From UHGV virus genome UHGV-0225178: a stretch of DNA of 20,614 nucleotides, one strand, 5' to 3'. Source of the DNA: a virus. Positions 3,123 to 20,228 of this stretch are shown here, piece after piece; the stretch's first letter is position 1, and each line of letters begins with the position of its first letter. Made by a program: the position numbers and the translations under genes. Under the pieces are notes generated by a model. It ran no database searches and had not been told where the DNA came from. It saw nothing but the letters and a program-made list of their open reading frames with translations.

Positions 3123-3243
3123 ATTGTCTCCGCATAAAGGATGAATATAAAATAAACAGGCGGTCAGTGTACGCTTAACTGGTAAAGTCGGTGCCTGCCT
3201 CCGGGTGGATCATGTATGCGGGTTCGACCCCCGCCACTGACCG

Positions 3244-4575
3244 TTAATCAATTTGTCCTTCCAGCACCTCAAGCATTCCGCCCCGGATATCCGATTTCAG
3301 CTTCTCCATATTGATAACCCGGTAAGCATTCACAATCACATCCAGTTTATCGGGCTGACGTTTCAGACTGTACGGTGCATTAACGGCAATCTGCACACTG
3401 CCATCCTGATTTTCCACGATATACATCAGATTGTTGTGCCGTTTGTCCCACAGTACCGCTTTTGGCTTTGCCAGCATTGCCGGTAAGCGCCCGAAGTCCT
3501 CCGGCATCAGGGCGATGCCGTCATTCTGATGTTTCACACTGTCCGCATGGAGCACATTTTTACCGCTCATCGCCAGCAGGCGGGCCGGTGGCGTTCCCGT
3601 CCGGCTTTCCACCGCCTGAGCAATACTTTCGGTCATAAAGCCCAGCGTGCGGATATCGTTACCACCTCGCCGGGTTTTCATGATGTTTTTTGCCCAGATG
3701 CGGAACGCCAGCTGCCGCTCCGGGCTGTTATTCATCTCCTGCACCACCATTTCCCGTAACGCCGGGCTTTTCACCTCGATCAGTTTGCGGATCAGCGCCT
3801 GGTCTGTGCCGAACGCTGCCGAGCCGGGGTTATATGACCAGCCCACATCCGGTGTCATGGTTCTGGTGCCATCTGAATATGTGGTCACCGGCATTTCTCT
3901 GACTTCTCCGGTCTGTTTATCCACGCCAGCCTCAACATTGCGGGTGGAGAGATGATCCTGACCGGATGAAACGGATAACCCCATCGCATCCAGACGGGCC
4001 TGAGACAATGGCCGGACACGGCAGCGACAGTTCCAGCCATTAGGCGGGTAGTGAGTATTCCAGAACGGATCGTCATAGCGGAATACCAGCCCGTTAAGGG
4101 CGGAATGCGCCGGGCGGGTGCGGCTGTCCATGACCGCCACATACTGCCAGAACGGATGCGTGTCCGTGTTGTTCATCATCTGCGTGTAACGCCCGGCATT
4201 GTAAGCCACACGGGTGTTCACGTTGTAAATCAGCGCCAGACGACGGGGACTGCCCAGTTGCACTTCTTCCGCGTTACCGTCGCTGTCCACCACAATCTGC
4301 TTTCCCCACCATCCCAGCTTTTGCAGGCGTGGCGTCAGCGTGCGGATAAATTCTTTCTGTGAAATTCCCTCATCAATGGCCCGTTGCATTTCGGCATGTA
4401 GGGTGGTCACCACATCCAGCCGTGCTGTTTTTGCTGCCGTGAATGAGCGGGCGTGCACATCCGCGTCTGTTTCGAACCAGTTCCAGCTGATATGCGCCCC
4501 TTTGGCGCGGAAGTATGCCACCGCCTCTTTTGAGGGAAGCGTGGCGGCATAACCTAAATCAATCCCCTGAGCCAT
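3244..4575 (-). CDS. F: Head morphogenesis protein, Mu gpF-like
   Basis: 443-aa ORF directly downstream of and overlapping the portal gene, as in Mu (portal H then F). Confidence 0.7.
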   Translation of the reverse strand: MAQGIDLGYAATLPSKEAVAYFRAKGAHISWNWFETDADVHARSFTAAKTARLDVVTTLHAEMQRAIDEGISQKEFIRTLTPRLQKLGWWGKQIVVDSDGNAEEVQLGSPRRLALIYNVNTRVAYNAGRYTQMMNNTDTHPFWQYVAVMDSRTRPAHSALNGLVFRYDDPFWNTHYPPNGWNCRCRVRPLSQARLDAMGLSVSSGQDHLSTRNVEAGVDKQTGEVREMPVTTYSDGTRTMTPDVGWSYNPGSAAFGTDQALIRKLIEVKSPALREMVVQEMNNSPERQLAFRIWAKNIMKTRRGGNDIRTLGFMTESIAQAVESRTGTPPARLLAMSGKNVLHADSVKHQNDGIALMPEDFGRLPAMLAKPKAVLWDKRHNNLMYIVENQDGSVQIAVNAPYSLKRQPDKLDVIVNAYRVINMEKLKSDIRGGMLEVLEGQID

Positions 4576-10987: not shown

Positions 10988-11497
10988 TTAACGGGGGAAT
11001 GATTTTTCATACAGCCTGCAAACGCGCTCATAACTCATCACTGTATGTGCTGGCATCCCCAGTACAGACAGCATTTTGCGGCGGTGCCAGCGTTTGAGAC
11101 GCTCCAGCACATCAGAGGCCATCGCGGGGTGTTGCTCCAGCCACTGCCAGTTAGCCACACCTTCGCCGCCGTTCTGCGCGGCCGTCTGCGATTTCACCCA
11201 GTGGTTAAGGGCTGTTTCCCCGCCATCAGAGATAAAGCCCTGCCGGTGCATCACCTTCCAGATGGCGCGAATTTTGGCGGTCACCGTACCCGGTTTTAAG
11301 GCCCGGTTAACCGGTTTCTGACGCACTTTAAAACCGCGTTTTTTGAAAACATCCAGCACGCGGGATAACTCATCCGGTGACATATCCCGGCAACTGGTTT
11401 TGCCGGTGGCTTCCAGTAGTACGGATGTGTAGATCTCATCATCCAGGGCAAGCTCGCGCTTTGCCACATGAATAGCGGATATCAGTTTCCCTCTCAT
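10988..11497 (-). CDS. Hypothetical early protein at the Mu gemA (gp16) position
   Basis: 169-aa ORF immediately upstream of the Mor/C-family gene, ATGA-coupled to the upstream gene; assignment by synteny only. Confidence 0.45.
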   Translation of the reverse strand: MRGKLISAIHVAKRELALDDEIYTSVLLEATGKTSCRDMSPDELSRVLDVFKKRGFKVRQKPVNRALKPGTVTAKIRAIWKVMHRQGFISDGGETALNHWVKSQTAAQNGGEGVANWQWLEQHPAMASDVLERLKRWHRRKMLSVLGMPAHTVMSYERVCRLYEKSFPR

Positions 11498-11790
11498 GCT
11501 GTATCAACACTCCTGCTGATATGATAGATATTATTTTCCCGATCGAGCTGAACCCGATACTCCGGAGGAATCACAAAAATATTAAAACCATCATCAGTTT
11601 TTATTCTTGAGTAGTATTCCCCCTTATGATATCTGGCAAGTGCATTAATCAGAGAAGTCGTCGCCAGCCCAATCAGGTATTTTTTATGAAAAATACTGAT
11701 AACTTTCCGGCACAGCCATCGTGTAATGACGAATGCACCGAAAAACGATGTGATATATAAACACCAGAACAACTGCGAACTACTGTCCAT
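11494..11790 (-). CDS. Small membrane-anchored protein (single N-terminal TM helix), low-GC insert
   Basis: 98 aa; TM segment LFWCLYITSFFGAFVITRWL followed by basic residues; AAGGAGA SD 7 nt before ATG; markedly AT-rich versus flanking phage genes. Confidence 0.6.
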   Translation of the reverse strand: MDSSSQLFWCLYITSFFGAFVITRWLCRKVISIFHKKYLIGLATTSLINALARYHKGEYYSRIKTDDGFNIFVIPPEYRVQLDRENNIYHISRSVDTA

Positions 11791-11805
11791 TATCTTTCTC
11801 CTTAT

Positions 11806-11940
11806 TCAGTCTTCTGCGGCATTCGGCACAGTCATCAGGGCTTTCAAATGTATCCGGCTCGCGATTATGAGCCAGATATAACCACCGCCTACATATACTG
11901 ATATTATCGCCTGTTTTAAAAAATGATGCTTCTTAGCCAT
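11806..11940 (-). CDS. Possible 44-aa hydrophobic micro-protein in the low-GC insert
   Basis: ORF found by hand translation (MAKKHHFLKQAIISVYVGGGYIWLIIASRIHLKALMTVPNAAED) with a central hydrophobic segment; weak RBS; below the ORF-track length cutoff. Confidence 0.2.
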   Translation of the reverse strand: MAKKHHFLKQAIISVYVGGGYIWLIIASRIHLKALMTVPNAAED

Positions 11941-11968
11941 CAGAGGGCGCGCCCATCCAGCGGGTAGA

Positions 11969-12301
11969 CTATTCATTTACTTTATCCTCCATACTGGACA
12001 GAATCATCTGTATTAATGTCGGGCGTGGAGATATACGCATTTCATTAAGCGTCTGAAGGGCAGCAACAGCTGCCTGTTTATCGGTGCCTTTGGCAATTTC
12101 CGCAAGAGAATGCACAATCCATAACGGACTTAACGCCACGACTGAATCCAGAATCATGTCATCCATAATAATTTCTGGCACATCCAGTTTGTCATACTCC
12201 TTATCCATAAAAGAAACGATTTTTTCCACATCTTCCGGTTTCATGCCTCCGGCGATGAGAATTTTTCTATATTCATAAGACGATCTTAATTCAATACTCA
12301 T
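11969..12301 (-). CDS. Small acidic soluble protein, low-GC insert
   Basis: Start placed at ATG 12301 (AGGAG with 6-nt spacer) instead of the ORF-track start at 12343; Asp/Glu-rich, no TM segment. Confidence 0.55.
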   Translation of the reverse strand: MSIELRSSYEYRKILIAGGMKPEDVEKIVSFMDKEYDKLDVPEIIMDDMILDSVVALSPLWIVHSLAEIAKGTDKQAAVAALQTLNEMRISPRPTLIQMILSSMEDKVNE

Positions 12302-12339
12302 ATTCATCTCCTGTAACGCTGACAAGGACGTAATTTTTC

Positions 12340-12525
12340 TCATTTATGTTTTCCAGTAATACGGATATATATGTCGATAAGAAGATTCATAATAAACAGG
12401 AAGAGCGACATCCTGATAAAGAACCATATATCTGGCATCATGGACAGATTTCCTGTAACCGAAAATATAAAACCAACCACCCCAACTGGAACGATAATTG
12501 CGAAAAGTATAAGTCGCTTTATCAT
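12340..12525 (-). CDS. 61-aa two-TM hydrophobic mini-protein, low-GC insert
   Basis: Two hydrophobic segments (LILFAIIVPVGVVGFIFSV and FFIRMSLFLFIMNLLIDIYI); ATGA stop-start overlaps on both sides. Confidence 0.5.
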   Translation of the reverse strand: MIKRLILFAIIVPVGVVGFIFSVTGNLSMMPDIWFFIRMSLFLFIMNLLIDIYIRITGKHK

Positions 12526-13073
12526 GGCGTTAACTCCCGTAATACAGCGTCCTCGGCGGTCCGGCGACGGTAATAAACTGCGTGAGCAGAATGTTCAGAT
12601 ATTCCAAACTTTTCGCCAATTTCCCGGAATGACAGACGGCGTGGGTAATCGGAATCACGCAGCGCACGTATAAGACGTACATCATCATCAGATATGCGCG
12701 TGCCGGGGCGTAACTCTCCGCACTTTGTTAATCCGGCACCAATCATTCCTGCCCGACATCTGACAGAATCTTTATTACGTCCGAGATATTCTCCCATTTG
12801 CTGGCAGGTCATTGTTCTGGCATTTTTTCGAATAAACTTATCTTCATCAGGTGTAAATCTGGGGTGTTTATATTTCAGTAACTCCGGGTATGAACTGCGC
12901 AATACACCAGTCCGGTTATATACAGCCCAGACAGTTCTTTTTATTCTGGCAGCAATATCCTTAACCGGGGTGGATGAATAAAGCGCAATCAGCAGCGCAT
13001 CTTCTTCAGGTATCCACGGACGGACATGAGCGGGGGCGCGACCTTTTCGTCCCATGGGTTGTAATTTCATCAT
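12522..13073 (-). CDS. Putative DNA-binding protein with three Myb/SANT-like repeats
   Basis: Three repeats of the pattern [W/F/I]-x-P/S-[E/D]-[E/D]-D followed by an HTH-like segment: WIPEEDALLIAL...IAARIKRTVWAVYNR, FTPDEDKFIRK...MGEYLGRNKDSVRCR, ISDDDVRLIRAL...FREIGEKFGISEHSAHAVYYRR. Confidence 0.55.
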   Translation of the reverse strand: MMKLQPMGRKGRAPAHVRPWIPEEDALLIALYSSTPVKDIAARIKRTVWAVYNRTGVLRSSYPELLKYKHPRFTPDEDKFIRKNARTMTCQQMGEYLGRNKDSVRCRAGMIGAGLTKCGELRPGTRISDDDVRLIRALRDSDYPRRLSFREIGEKFGISEHSAHAVYYRRRTAEDAVLRELTP

Positions 13074-13076
13074 GCA

Positions 13077-13592
13077 TCACCCCCTGACTCGCTTTTCAGC
13101 AGCATAAAACTCATCAGACAGAATTTCGGTCATTTTCCGTTTTGCGGAATCATCTTCGCACTGAAGATAAATCACATTGTCAACGCAGAACCAGTTCACG
13201 GGACCATACAATATTGCTGAGAAGTCAATGCCCAGCCAGAACAACAGGGCATCGGTTCTGGCATACGTGACGGGCGAATATTCACGCCACAGAATGTTCA
13301 GTTCATCAGAGGCAACACGCAGGGTTTTAGGGATACGTGATGTGCGCGGCGTGCAGCTCCAGCCATTCGACGCAGTCGGTTTTCTCCATAAGTCGCGATG
13401 AAAAGGATATTTGTCATCCATAAAGCGCAGCCCCTTAAAACAAAATCCACTGATACCGGATACAAATACCGACCGGCACGCAACATTCAGCACGGCCTCA
13501 AGGCGTTTTGCCTCATCCTTAACTTTCTGGCAGTCCTGCTGGTATTTTTGCCACGCAGCCAGCGCGGAAGGGTTTGATGTTTTAAAGAACAT
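13077..13592 (-). CDS. Hypothetical early-region protein
   Basis: 171-aa ORF; 3-nt gap downstream and TAATG overlap upstream indicate the same operon; no recognised motif. Confidence 0.55.
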   Translation of the reverse strand: MFFKTSNPSALAAWQKYQQDCQKVKDEAKRLEAVLNVACRSVFVSGISGFCFKGLRFMDDKYPFHRDLWRKPTASNGWSCTPRTSRIPKTLRVASDELNILWREYSPVTYARTDALLFWLGIDFSAILYGPVNWFCVDNVIYLQCEDDSAKRKMTEILSDEFYAAEKRVRG

Positions 13593-14125
13593 TACGCCAC
13601 CTCCGCAGATATCCCGGCAGGCGCTGCTGTCCGGTCAACAATCAGGTAGCGCAGAACACGCGCGGTGATATTCCAGCCGCTTAAACCGCAGATAATGACA
13701 CCCAGGCGAATGTCGATATACGCCATCACAAACTGGGGTACGCCTTCTTTCATGGCCTGCTCATCAACTTCAGCCACCACATAAACGGTTCCACAGGTCA
13801 GAACGCCCTGAGCAAATTCCCACGCCATCGACGGAATATCATGCCCCTCAATCCACGGCAGGGATTTTCTGAAGCTGCACCACTGAACATCATCAGCCGC
13901 ACATTCCTGGCTGCATTTGCGACGAACCGGCTGCACCGGGCGGGGACGCGGAATATCATAAAAACCGTTACATTCCGTCAGCACGCCTGCATCAACCGCA
14001 TCACGCAGAAAATAAACCATGGAGGATGGCGGCATATTCATTTTTTCAGCCAGTACACCGCAGGTCAGACGTCCGTAAATACTCAGCCAGTTTTTAACCC
14101 CTTCAAGCACTTTTGCATCAATCAT
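13592..14125 (-). CDS. Hypothetical early-region protein with probable N-terminal winged-helix and Cys-containing C-terminal region
   Basis: 177-aa ORF; N-terminal segment resembles an HTH; several Cys residues downstream; coupled to neighbours. Confidence 0.55.
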   Translation of the reverse strand: MIDAKVLEGVKNWLSIYGRLTCGVLAEKMNMPPSSMVYFLRDAVDAGVLTECNGFYDIPRPRPVQPVRRKCSQECAADDVQWCSFRKSLPWIEGHDIPSMAWEFAQGVLTCGTVYVVAEVDEQAMKEGVPQFVMAYIDIRLGVIICGLSGWNITARVLRYLIVDRTAAPAGISAEVA

Positions 14126-14128
14126 GAA

Positions 14129-14671
14129 TTATTCCTCCGTAAGCGCCACATATTCAGAATGTTTAATTTCCTGGCATTCTTCAGGAATACACCCGTTTAT
14201 TTCCCTGCCATAAGCGCCTACTTTAAACACCACACACAGAGCATCACGGGAGAGCGACGGGGTCCACCAGGAGTCCGTGTTAAACATGGAGGGGATTCTC
14301 ATTACCCCCAGCTTTTCACAGAGCCAGACAAGGAAATCAGGATGTTTTCTTAAATCGCGTTCAGCGGCTTCAACCATTGCGGCAATCGCCGGTCCTTCAG
14401 GGCATAACTCATCAGGTCTGGCAATAAAGCACTGTCCGTCCCCGATAAAAGCCACATCATCGCGCTTACGCCAGCCCGCAGGCAGAGCACCGGCAAAATA
14501 AAACTCACTGACTCTGTCCATGGCGAACGGCTTTAAGCGCAATCCGGCAGCGCCTGTATTTTTCAGTAATGCCCGAAGAATACTGTTGCGTAGCGGTAAA
14601 ACAGTCTGTTGATATTTGGTGAAATATTTATTTGTCTGCACACGGTCTAATTTGAAATAAAAATATGCCAT
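14129..14671 (-). CDS. Hypothetical early-region protein
   Basis: 180-aa ORF; AAGGAA SD about 9 nt upstream of the ATG at 14671; first gene after gam. Confidence 0.55.
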   Translation of the reverse strand: MAYFYFKLDRVQTNKYFTKYQQTVLPLRNSILRALLKNTGAAGLRLKPFAMDRVSEFYFAGALPAGWRKRDDVAFIGDGQCFIARPDELCPEGPAIAAMVEAAERDLRKHPDFLVWLCEKLGVMRIPSMFNTDSWWTPSLSRDALCVVFKVGAYGREINGCIPEECQEIKHSEYVALTEE

Positions 14672-14768
14672 ATTTCCGATTCCTTATTTTCAGCTTTCAG
14701 GCGCAAGCAGTCCCCTGACGCGAGCGCCATACTTAAAACGATGTGATATTTAAAGATTTAATGCGGTG

Positions 14769-15299
14769 TTATTTATTCAGTCCGGCGTCCTGTTCAAAAG
14801 GCTCGACATAAAAACTTTCAGCGCCTTTATTCACCTTAATACCGGCAATGCCTTTCACTGCATCCGGCTCCGCCAGGACGGCTTCCTTGTTCACTTCCTC
14901 TTTCGTGCGGATGAATCGCTCAAGCCCCATACGGCGCAGCATTTCAATCACACCTTCCACATCACGGCTGACGCTGCATGATGGCGTTCCCAGCCGCCAT
15001 GACACCGTTCCGGTGGTCAGATTGACTGTTTTGGTTTTGCCGCCGTTCGTCAGCTCATCACGGTTGGTTTTGCACCAGTCCTGAATCCCTTTAAAAAGCA
15101 CTTTGATTTGCTTTTTAAGATTTTCAATCTGCGGCGTATAACGGGCGGTGATTTCAGCCACCTCGTCATTCATTGCCGTTTCCAGGCGCAGCGCCTCTCG
15201 CTGAATATCGCCCAGGGTGCGGATATCACGGCTGACTTCTTCGCGGGTCTGCGGTGCGGCCTCGGCTGCGGCCTTTAATTTTGTAACGCGTTTTGCCAT
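14769..15299 (-). CDS. gam: Host-nuclease inhibitor Gam (Ku-like DNA-end-binding protein)
   Basis: 176 aa; closely matches my recollection of Mu Gam (LETAMNDEVAEITARY, ANRDELTNGGKTKT, FIRTKEEVNKEA, VEPFEQDAG); AAGGA SD upstream. Confidence 0.85.
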   Translation of the reverse strand: MAKRVTKLKAAAEAAPQTREEVSRDIRTLGDIQREALRLETAMNDEVAEITARYTPQIENLKKQIKVLFKGIQDWCKTNRDELTNGGKTKTVNLTTGTVSWRLGTPSCSVSRDVEGVIEMLRRMGLERFIRTKEEVNKEAVLAEPDAVKGIAGIKVNKGAESFYVEPFEQDAGLNK

Positions 15300-19682: not shown

Positions 19683-20228
19683 ATGAACAAGCAAGCAACA
19701 ACATCTCTTTCTTTTCCAGGTGGTAGAAAAGAAAGCATTGCTGAACGTCTGAAAAGGCTGATTGGCCCCCGTAGCGTCAGAGCTGCCGCAAGAGATTGGG
19801 GGCTTTCATTTTCAACGCTAAACAATTATCTGTCTCGTGGCACTGAACCATCCTTAAGTGTCGCCCTTCAGATTGCGTCTATCGAAGGGGTTAGTGTTGA
19901 GTGGCTGTGTGGATTCAGTGATGCGCCTCAAGTGAATCATAGTGAGATCAAGGCAAATCAAGATGAAAGCAAGAAGATAATTATGACCATTATCAGCGCA
20001 CTTGACGAAAAAGACTTAGAGCAGCTATCGAAAAATTTAGTTCTGAATGGAGCCAAGTACTTAGCTCGGCTGTTAGAGCCTGAAAATCAAGATCTAATCC
20101 GCTTAGAAGGAAGGAAAAGAATAGCTGCGTTACAGCTTGAAGGTATGTCTGACGAACGCGTCAGAGAGATTTTGGAAGAAACTGAGAGAAGTCGCAAATC
20201 TAACGCGGTAGACTCGAAAGCGGGTTAA
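19683..20228 (+). CDS. Prophage repressor with CI/Cro-type (XRE-like) N-terminal HTH and helical C-terminal domain
   Basis: 181 aa; HTH pattern AARDWGLSFSTLNNYLSRGTEPSLSVALQIASIEGVSVEWLCG; AGGAAG RBS; divergent from ner at the prophage end. Confidence 0.7.
   Translation: MNKQATTSLSFPGGRKESIAERLKRLIGPRSVRAAARDWGLSFSTLNNYLSRGTEPSLSVALQIASIEGVSVEWLCGFSDAPQVNHSEIKANQDESKKIIMTIISALDEKDLEQLSKNLVLNGAKYLARLLEPENQDLIRLEGRKRIAALQLEGMSDERVREILEETERSRKSNAVDSKAG

Follow-up and report, generated by a model that had tools for sequence, protein, structure and literature searches.

The window analysed here is the whole 20,614-nucleotide (nt) stretch of virus genome UHGV-0225178, a Mu-like prophage of E. coli with genes mostly on the minus strand. 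Three open reading frames (ORFs) that follow its gam gene, named here ORF-A, ORF-B and ORF-C, are the subject of this analysis. Sequence comparison leaves little doubt that ORF-B is the homologue of Mu gp11, that ORF-C is the homologue of Mu gp12, and that ORF-A is a divergent DUF5420-like gene, probably a distant paralogue of gp12. We explain the block as the gp11/gp12 segment of the Mu-like semi-essential early region, enlarged by one gene; taken as a whole, with the expression, activity and role proposed below, this explanation is offered tentatively. The main result is the correct label: these are not orphan genes but the gp11/gp12 block carried by Mu, which has gone unexplained since its sequencing. 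All three genes belong to catalogued families, and what is added here is a proposed link between gp12 and DUF5420, a predicted fold with no solved relative, and a swappable slot between gam and gp11. The coordinates, strand and family matches of the three ORFs were as follows.

14129-14671, minus strand: ORF-A, 180 amino acids (aa), ATG start, PHROG 2260 (E 3.6e-72)
13592-14125, minus strand: ORF-B, 177 aa, ATG start, assigned as the Mu gp11 homologue
13077-13592, minus strand: ORF-C, 171 aa, ATG start, assigned as the Mu gp12 homologue, PHROG 2314 (E 2.7e-81)

ORF-B was 67% identical to Mu gp11 (Mup11, NP_050615) over all 177 residues, and it scored 133.2 bits in the Pfam family PF25754 (Gp11_C), where the cut-off is 27 (E 4.3e-39), with profile positions 1-78 of 78 covered. 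ORF-C was 52% identical to Mu gp12 (Mup12, NP_050616) over 169 residues, and its PHROG 2314 match covered profile positions 2-169 of 173. An hmmscan of ORF-C against a local Pfam copy returned no family; a precomputed PF26885 annotation was carried by 46 of 46 relatives. Reciprocal best-match and synteny checks to Mu gp11 and gp12 were passed, and the order gam, gp11, gp12 was confirmed in Mu, in the window and in the IMG/VR loci. ORF-B shares with Mu gp11 its length, its place after gam and a 1-nt stop/start overlap with gp12 (6954/6954 in Mu). The two differ in that gp11 directly follows the gam spacer in Mu, whereas here the DUF5420-like gene is inserted ahead of it and the last codons of that inserted gene supply the ribosome-binding site of gp11. 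ORF-C likewise keeps the position of Mu gp12 after gp11, and its coupling, but it is followed here by a coupled gene for a 183-aa predicted helix-turn-helix (HTH) protein, ORF-D, and in Mu by the small gp13 and gp14. In SfMu (NC_027382), the gp12-like frame was found split in two and unannotated in RefSeq (L003, 2495-2863 and 2931-3062); this gp12 copy has probably undergone a frameshift or is in decay.

ORF-A has no counterpart in Mu. It was 41% identical to SfMu gp11, which occupies the same slot and is named a 'DUF5420 family protein' in RefSeq, and 37-39% identical to its equivalents in Yersinia Mu-like phages and Salmonella prophages (37% to the Salmonella DUF5420 protein). With these proteins it shares its length, the slot between gam and the gp11 homologue, and the C-terminal tail IKHSE[YF]VALTEE. 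It differs from them in lying under the gathering threshold of DUF5420 (Pfam PF17457), with 13.4 bits against 26 (E 0.07) and no match at E <= 0.01. DUF5420 was matched by 19 of the 29 proteins in the ORF-A family alignment (18 of 28 relatives), with a best E of 9e-28. The family is very small, with 26 representatives in 1.84 billion clustered proteins, and a scan of genome contigs with the DUF5420-like alignment gave 51 pattern matches, 0 of them confirmed. Judged by these matches, ORF-A is a divergent DUF5420 relative and not a threshold-passing member.

Neither pairwise BLASTP nor hhalign with shallow alignments connected ORF-A with ORF-C. The alignments were then broadened, with relatives from a deep search added for ORF-A (A4) and homologues from Klebsiella, Vibrio, Acinetobacter and Pseudomonas phages added for gp12 (A5). 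With these, hhalign aligned the ORF-A family to the gp12 family over 154 collinear columns (Prob 89.4%, E 2.1e-6). In a local re-run the ORF-A/gp12 comparison scored 43.6; none of the controls, which were the gp11 profile, profiles read in reverse and 30 profiles with shuffled columns, scored above 17.7 (E >= 0.088). Common to both families are an N-terminal [YF]FK, a central L..LG and a C-terminal EI..SE[FY]..A motif. ORF-A and ORF-C are thus probably distant paralogues, on support that is decent and not conclusive, and gp12 and DUF5420 appear to form a single superfamily, which is proposed here.

The three ORFs are real genes and not chance ORFs, because they gave full-length PHROG matches (E 4e-72, 8e-104 and 3e-81 for ORF-A, ORF-B and ORF-C), RefSeq calls and low ratios of nonsynonymous to synonymous substitution (dN/dS), and because the antisense ORFs of the interval matched no PHROG family. 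The same three coding sequences were called by RefSeq in E. coli CI5, which is 99.9% identical over the 1.75-kb block. All three are under purifying selection: median dN/dS, taken against 35-57 related and partly redundant loci, was 0.38 for ORF-A, 0.14 for ORF-B and 0.22 for ORF-C, with 0.09 for Gam as a comparison. The block was present at 90-99% identity in 232 of 5426 complete E. coli genomes (~4%), many of them O157 and other Shiga toxin-producing E. coli (STEC). Its DNA identity to Mu, D108, SfMu and Yersinia Mu-like phages was only ~69%.

The initial annotation had described three tightly coupled ORFs of 171-180 aa, and the ORF list and the junctions bear this out. The gam stop codon TAA is followed by a 97-nt spacer, an AAGGAA ribosome-binding site (14685-14680) and the ATG of ORF-A, as read from the sequence. 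ORF-A and ORF-B are separated by a 3-nt gap (TAA-ttc-ATG), and ORF-B and ORF-C overlap by 1 nt at 13592 within TAATG (13594-13590). Nearly every locus in which the ORFs are intact kept these 3 nt between its DUF5420-like gene and gp11, even where the alleles are only 25-40% identical. A fourth gene omitted by the initial annotation, ORF-D, belongs to the same coupled block, with a TGA-tgc-ATG junction to ORF-C. The two internal ribosome-binding sites lie within the preceding genes.

14133-14138, minus strand: GGAGGA ribosome-binding site for ORF-B, inside the conserved last codons (T-E-E) of ORF-A
13598-13604, minus strand: GGAGGTG ribosome-binding site for ORF-C, inside the end of ORF-B

The rest of the early region is Mu-like, and together with the Pfam and PHROG matches this places the block, as had been claimed, next to Gam in the position of the Mu semi-essential early region.

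19683-20228, plus strand: repressor, in a Mu-like context
Upstream of Gam, minus strand: Ner, transposase A and B, then a 75-aa ORF, a Kil-like ORF and a PHROG 2230 ORF
14769-15299, minus strand: Gam, Pfam PF07352 (Phage_Mu_Gam; E 6.4e-42) and PHROG 491 (E 5.5e-70), the upstream boundary of the module
14672-14768, minus strand: spacer of 97 nt between gam and ORF-A, read from the sequence
12522-13073, minus strand: ORF-D, 183 aa, coupled to ORF-C, PHROG 323 (E 1.2e-51)
~11494-12525, minus strand: stretch of small ORFs low in guanine plus cytosine (GC), between ORF-D and GemA
Downstream of the low-GC stretch, in this order: GemA, Mor, endolysin and head genes

The minus strand showed no sigma-70-like promoter or terminator-like site in gam, in ORF-C or anywhere between them; its sole sites of either kind were at ORF-D's 3' end and immediately beyond. 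Because of this lack of internal sites, the block looks like part of a long early transcript. It is likely that ORF-A, ORF-B, ORF-C and ORF-D would be read from such a transcript starting at the early promoter. Since the ribosome-binding site of each gene is contained in the final codons of the one before, translation would proceed by coupling, and the products would be made solely during lytic development, alongside transposase, B, Kil and Gam.

ORF-C gave a confident AlphaFold2 (AF2) model with the merged alignment (predicted local distance difference test score, pLDDT, 86.5; predicted template modelling score, pTM, 0.76). Along the chain, the model has a strand and a long helix, continues through a beta hairpin and a loop into three helices and a second hairpin, and closes with a short helix (148-152), a strand and a C-terminal helix. 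ORF-C is accordingly modelled as a phage-specific alpha/beta protein with a confidently predicted fold that has no solved structural relative. The ORF-B model was poor overall (pLDDT 60). Its N-terminal domain is helical and HTH-like (~70), its C-terminal domain is rich in beta structure (~80), and the linker joining them (56-111) is of low confidence. ORF-B matched no Pfam HTH family even at E 0.1, and it falls outside the Lrp/AsnC- and MarR-type winged-helix proteins, for which a recognisable HTH domain and an effector or dimerisation domain are required. Among 45 homologues its cysteines C22, C83 and C111 were invariant and C52 nearly so. These four conserved cysteines are spread over both domains; they might form a metal site bridging the domains, which might also explain the poorly modelled linker.

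Searches for function gave little. No enzyme family was found for ORF-A, ORF-B or ORF-C in Pfam, NCBIfam or PDB profile searches; NCBIfam gave no match of any kind, and PDB searches with single sequences and profiles gave nothing below E 0.2. PADLOC reported no defence family at E <= 0.1 for ORF-A, ORF-B, ORF-C, ORF-D or the small ORFs downstream. Nothing resembling a characterised anti-defence protein was seen in Pfam, PHROGs, NCBIfam or the PDB by sequence and fold, no dedicated anti-defence library having been searched. The initial annotation had seen no recognisable motif in the three ORFs, which the gp11, gp12 and DUF5420 assignments overturn, the DUF5420-like gene being present also in SfMu and Yersinia Mu-like phages. 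It had also set its proposal of anti-defence or host-takeover functions against the possibility that these are conserved Mu early genes of known role. Conserved Mu early genes they are; a role was not found, as no paper in the searchable literature on Mu gp11, gp12, DUF5420 or the semi-essential early region assigned one. In two preprints on anti-defence, Gam was the sole gene of the region mentioned.

The gene content around gp11 was compared in 64 gp11-anchored IMG/VR loci with enough flank, a redundant set of mostly E. coli and Salmonella prophages. The arrangements were distributed as follows.

19 of 64 loci: Gam, DUF5420-like, gp11, gp12 and ORF-D
14 of 64 loci: Gam and gp11 only
11 of 64 loci: Gam, gp11 and gp12
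8 of 64 loci: Gam, gp11, gp12 and ORF-D
6 of 64 loci: DUF5420-like and gp11, without gp12
6 of 64 loci: DUF5420-like, gp11 and gp12, without ORF-D

In total, a DUF5420-like gene was present in 31 loci, gp12 in 44, neither in 14 and ORF-D in 27. These counts show that the DUF5420-like and gp12 genes have been gained and lost independently around a constant gp11. Wherever a locus extends past its DUF5420-like gene, that gene was found directly upstream of gp11. The idea that gp11 is always accompanied by at least one of the two paralogues was rejected, with gp11 alone in 14 of 64 loci and one of these (L094) confirmed by eye. One further locus (L040, 5473-6602; IMGVR_UViG_2663762818_000004) had two tandem DUF5420-like genes upstream of gp11 and gp12; Gam was undetected there with a single-sequence profile.

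The slot between gam and gp11 has undergone clean cassette exchange with breakpoints at gene borders. When the window was compared with the Mu-like element in Stx1_JNE122137, identity was ~95% through gam and gp11-gp12 and ~35-40% precisely across ORF-A (about 14700 to 14150). The two ORF-A alleles were 24.6% identical, and the adjoining gp11 was 97% identical. The left breakpoint lies at ~14700, in the spacer between gam and ORF-A, where identity falls from ~0.9 to ~0.4. The other border is the conserved tail of ORF-A that carries the ribosome-binding site of gp11.

Genes of the gp12 type are not confined to transposable phages. They were found without gp11, MuA or MuB in Klebsiella Lastavirus phages; in Vibrio phages, near a helicase-like (COG1061) gene, dUTPase or DNA ligase; and upstream of Bet in Acinetobacter phage TCUAN1. 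They were also found in ~20 uncultivated temperate-phage contigs, in most of which a cI/LexA-like repressor lies a few genes upstream. In non-Mu temperate phages the gp12-like genes belong to the accessory early operon, where ParB-HTH proteins, Lar and orphan DNA methyltransferases (MT-A70 and C5) are among their neighbours, Lar and the orphan methyltransferases being one or two genes away. In one contig (L191, 3995-4993; IMGVR_UViG_2795385498_000006), the gp12-like gene is followed immediately by a 73-aa FtsK-gamma winged-helix protein (E 1e-16) and then by Lar (E 1.5e-13).

With regard to molecular activity, the chances are about even that the gp11-like protein would bind DNA through its N-terminal HTH and that the gp12 and DUF5420-like proteins, as small alpha/beta proteins, would be binders of another macromolecule and not enzymes. 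The latter proteins have been found so far only in phage or prophage DNA and have no obvious catalytic residue set. As to their role, we infer, with more doubt than confidence, that these would be dispensable accessory proteins which adjust the host for lytic growth, by counter-defence or by taking over the cell; within the block it is the ORF-A slot that looks most like part of an arms race. This reading follows from the accessory pattern of distribution, the faster evolution of ORF-A and its exchange as a cassette, the absence of an enzyme signature, the place next to Gam, and the anti-restriction neighbours of gp12-like genes elsewhere. All of this support is circumstantial, and the reading is plausible. 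Host-acting genes of known type, such as Lar (restriction alleviation) and Mu Gam, are similarly placed in an early lytic operon next to a host-nuclease inhibitor, but the proteins of the block have no sequence or fold similarity to them and the likeness is positional only.

Several points weigh against the host-adjusting role and the assignments beneath it. None of the three proteins is tied by experiment or homology to a host target or to any defence system. Neighbourhood is weak evidence because many unrelated functions are encoded in the early accessory regions of phages, and the presence/absence counts are not independent events because the loci are redundant. The proposed homology of ORF-A and ORF-C comes from profile comparison alone, and in the reverse direction hhalign gave just 27% probability. 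The isoelectric points (pI) of ORF-A (6.7), ORF-B (5.2) and ORF-C (8.9) are none of them strongly acidic. Finally, Mu arm (amplified replication of Mu; replication-stimulating) and cim (immunity-control) are reported to map to the same region without assigned ORFs (PMC4553209), and either could equally be gp11 or gp12. The idea that any of the proteins is a DNA mimic was considered separately and rejected, the pI values being insufficiently acidic.

The last of these points leads to the main, serious rival, which we nevertheless consider unlikely: that one or more of the genes are arm or cim, the gp11-like HTH binding Mu DNA and the other proteins assisting the transposition-replication machinery. 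Only some of the genetically defined functions of the region have assigned ORFs, and gp11 would suit such a function: nearly all loci with sufficient flank contain it together with A, B, Gam, GemA and Mor, it is under strong purifying selection (dN/dS 0.14), and the ORF-B model has an HTH-like domain. The gp12 family fits less well. Because its members are present in phages without MuA and MuB, among them non-transposable lambdoid and lytic phages, a transposition-specific role is unlikely for it, an argument that does not apply to gp11. The presence, absence and swapping of ORF-A and ORF-C are also unlike core replication helpers, and no mapping of arm or cim to these ORFs was found in the searchable literature.

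It is less probable still that the block sets the timing of transcription, with the gp11-like protein and ORF-D tuning early, middle or host genes and the gp12 and DUF5420-like proteins as co-factors. Such a role would agree with the interleaving of two predicted DNA-binding proteins (ORF-B and ORF-D) with the paralogues, just upstream of the regulators GemA and Mor, and with the small winged-helix (wHTH) proteins that often lie near gp12-like genes elsewhere (FtsK-gamma, E 1e-16; a weak HTH_20-like match). But wHTH genes are common in all early regions, and the missing Pfam HTH match of ORF-B holds even at the permissive threshold of E 0.1. An obligatory pair is unsupported, since gp11 is alone in 14 of 64 loci and gp12-like genes occur elsewhere without gp11. 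The occurrence of 25%-identical ORF-A alleles beside 97%-identical gp11 is contrary to a co-evolving specific complex.

A prophage defence, superinfection-exclusion or toxin-antitoxin system that benefits the lysogen is very unlikely. The genes are small, tightly coupled and variable, lie in a prophage and include one with an HTH, like many antitoxins; against this, PADLOC gave no match, no promoter-like site would allow expression in a repressed prophage, and the block has the conserved Mu position within the early lytic operon. Chance ORFs or decaying pseudogenes without function, as the want of a known function and the split, unannotated SfMu gp12 copy might suggest, are refuted by dN/dS values of 0.14-0.38, full-length PHROG matches, length, order and junctions conserved from Mu to Salmonella and Yersinia relatives, and the confident AF2 fold of ORF-C, leaving this reading next to no probability.

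Within the preferred reading of an accessory, host-adjusting block, a more specific version is speculative and improbable as it stands. The gp12/DUF5420 proteins would be a new phage-specific fold of counter-defence or host-factor binders, diversified by cassette exchange at the Gam-side slot. The gp11 HTH would be their conserved directing or regulating partner, and the pair flanking gp11 would have two specificities against different host targets. The superfamily link, the spread of gp12 and the cassette slot could be useful to work on Mu early functions or to counter-defence discovery. As ~4% of complete E. coli genomes carry the block, any function discovered for it would concern many strains, both STEC and commensal.

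ORF-D is basic (pI 10) and gave weak Pfam matches to HTH_AsnC, HTH_10 and Myb; it is predicted to be an HTH or Myb-like DNA-binding protein. Mu gp9 belongs to the same PHROG 323 ('transcriptional regulator, D5-like'), but it lies upstream of gam in Mu, and ORF-D is about twice its length. The low-GC stretch that follows ORF-D, the 'insert' of the initial annotation, has 39-40% GC, as compared to ~55% in GemA and Mor. Its ORFs encode a hydrophobic 61-aa protein and proteins of 124 aa (PHROG 1988), 56 aa and 98 aa (PHROG 17269), and it looks like foreign cargo in a variable slot.

Two further observations came from the CI5 prophage. RefSeq annotates a 'tRNA-OTHER' between the virion-morphogenesis and head-morphogenesis genes, at window ~3210-3289 (L002, 211-290). 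Scans of the whole window with ARAGORN and Rfam gave no match. At the repressor end of the prophage, the neighbouring fimbrial usher gene yfcU is annotated as a truncated pseudogene (L002, 17698-19449), which suggests that the prophage in CI5 was inserted into yfcU by Mu-type transposition.

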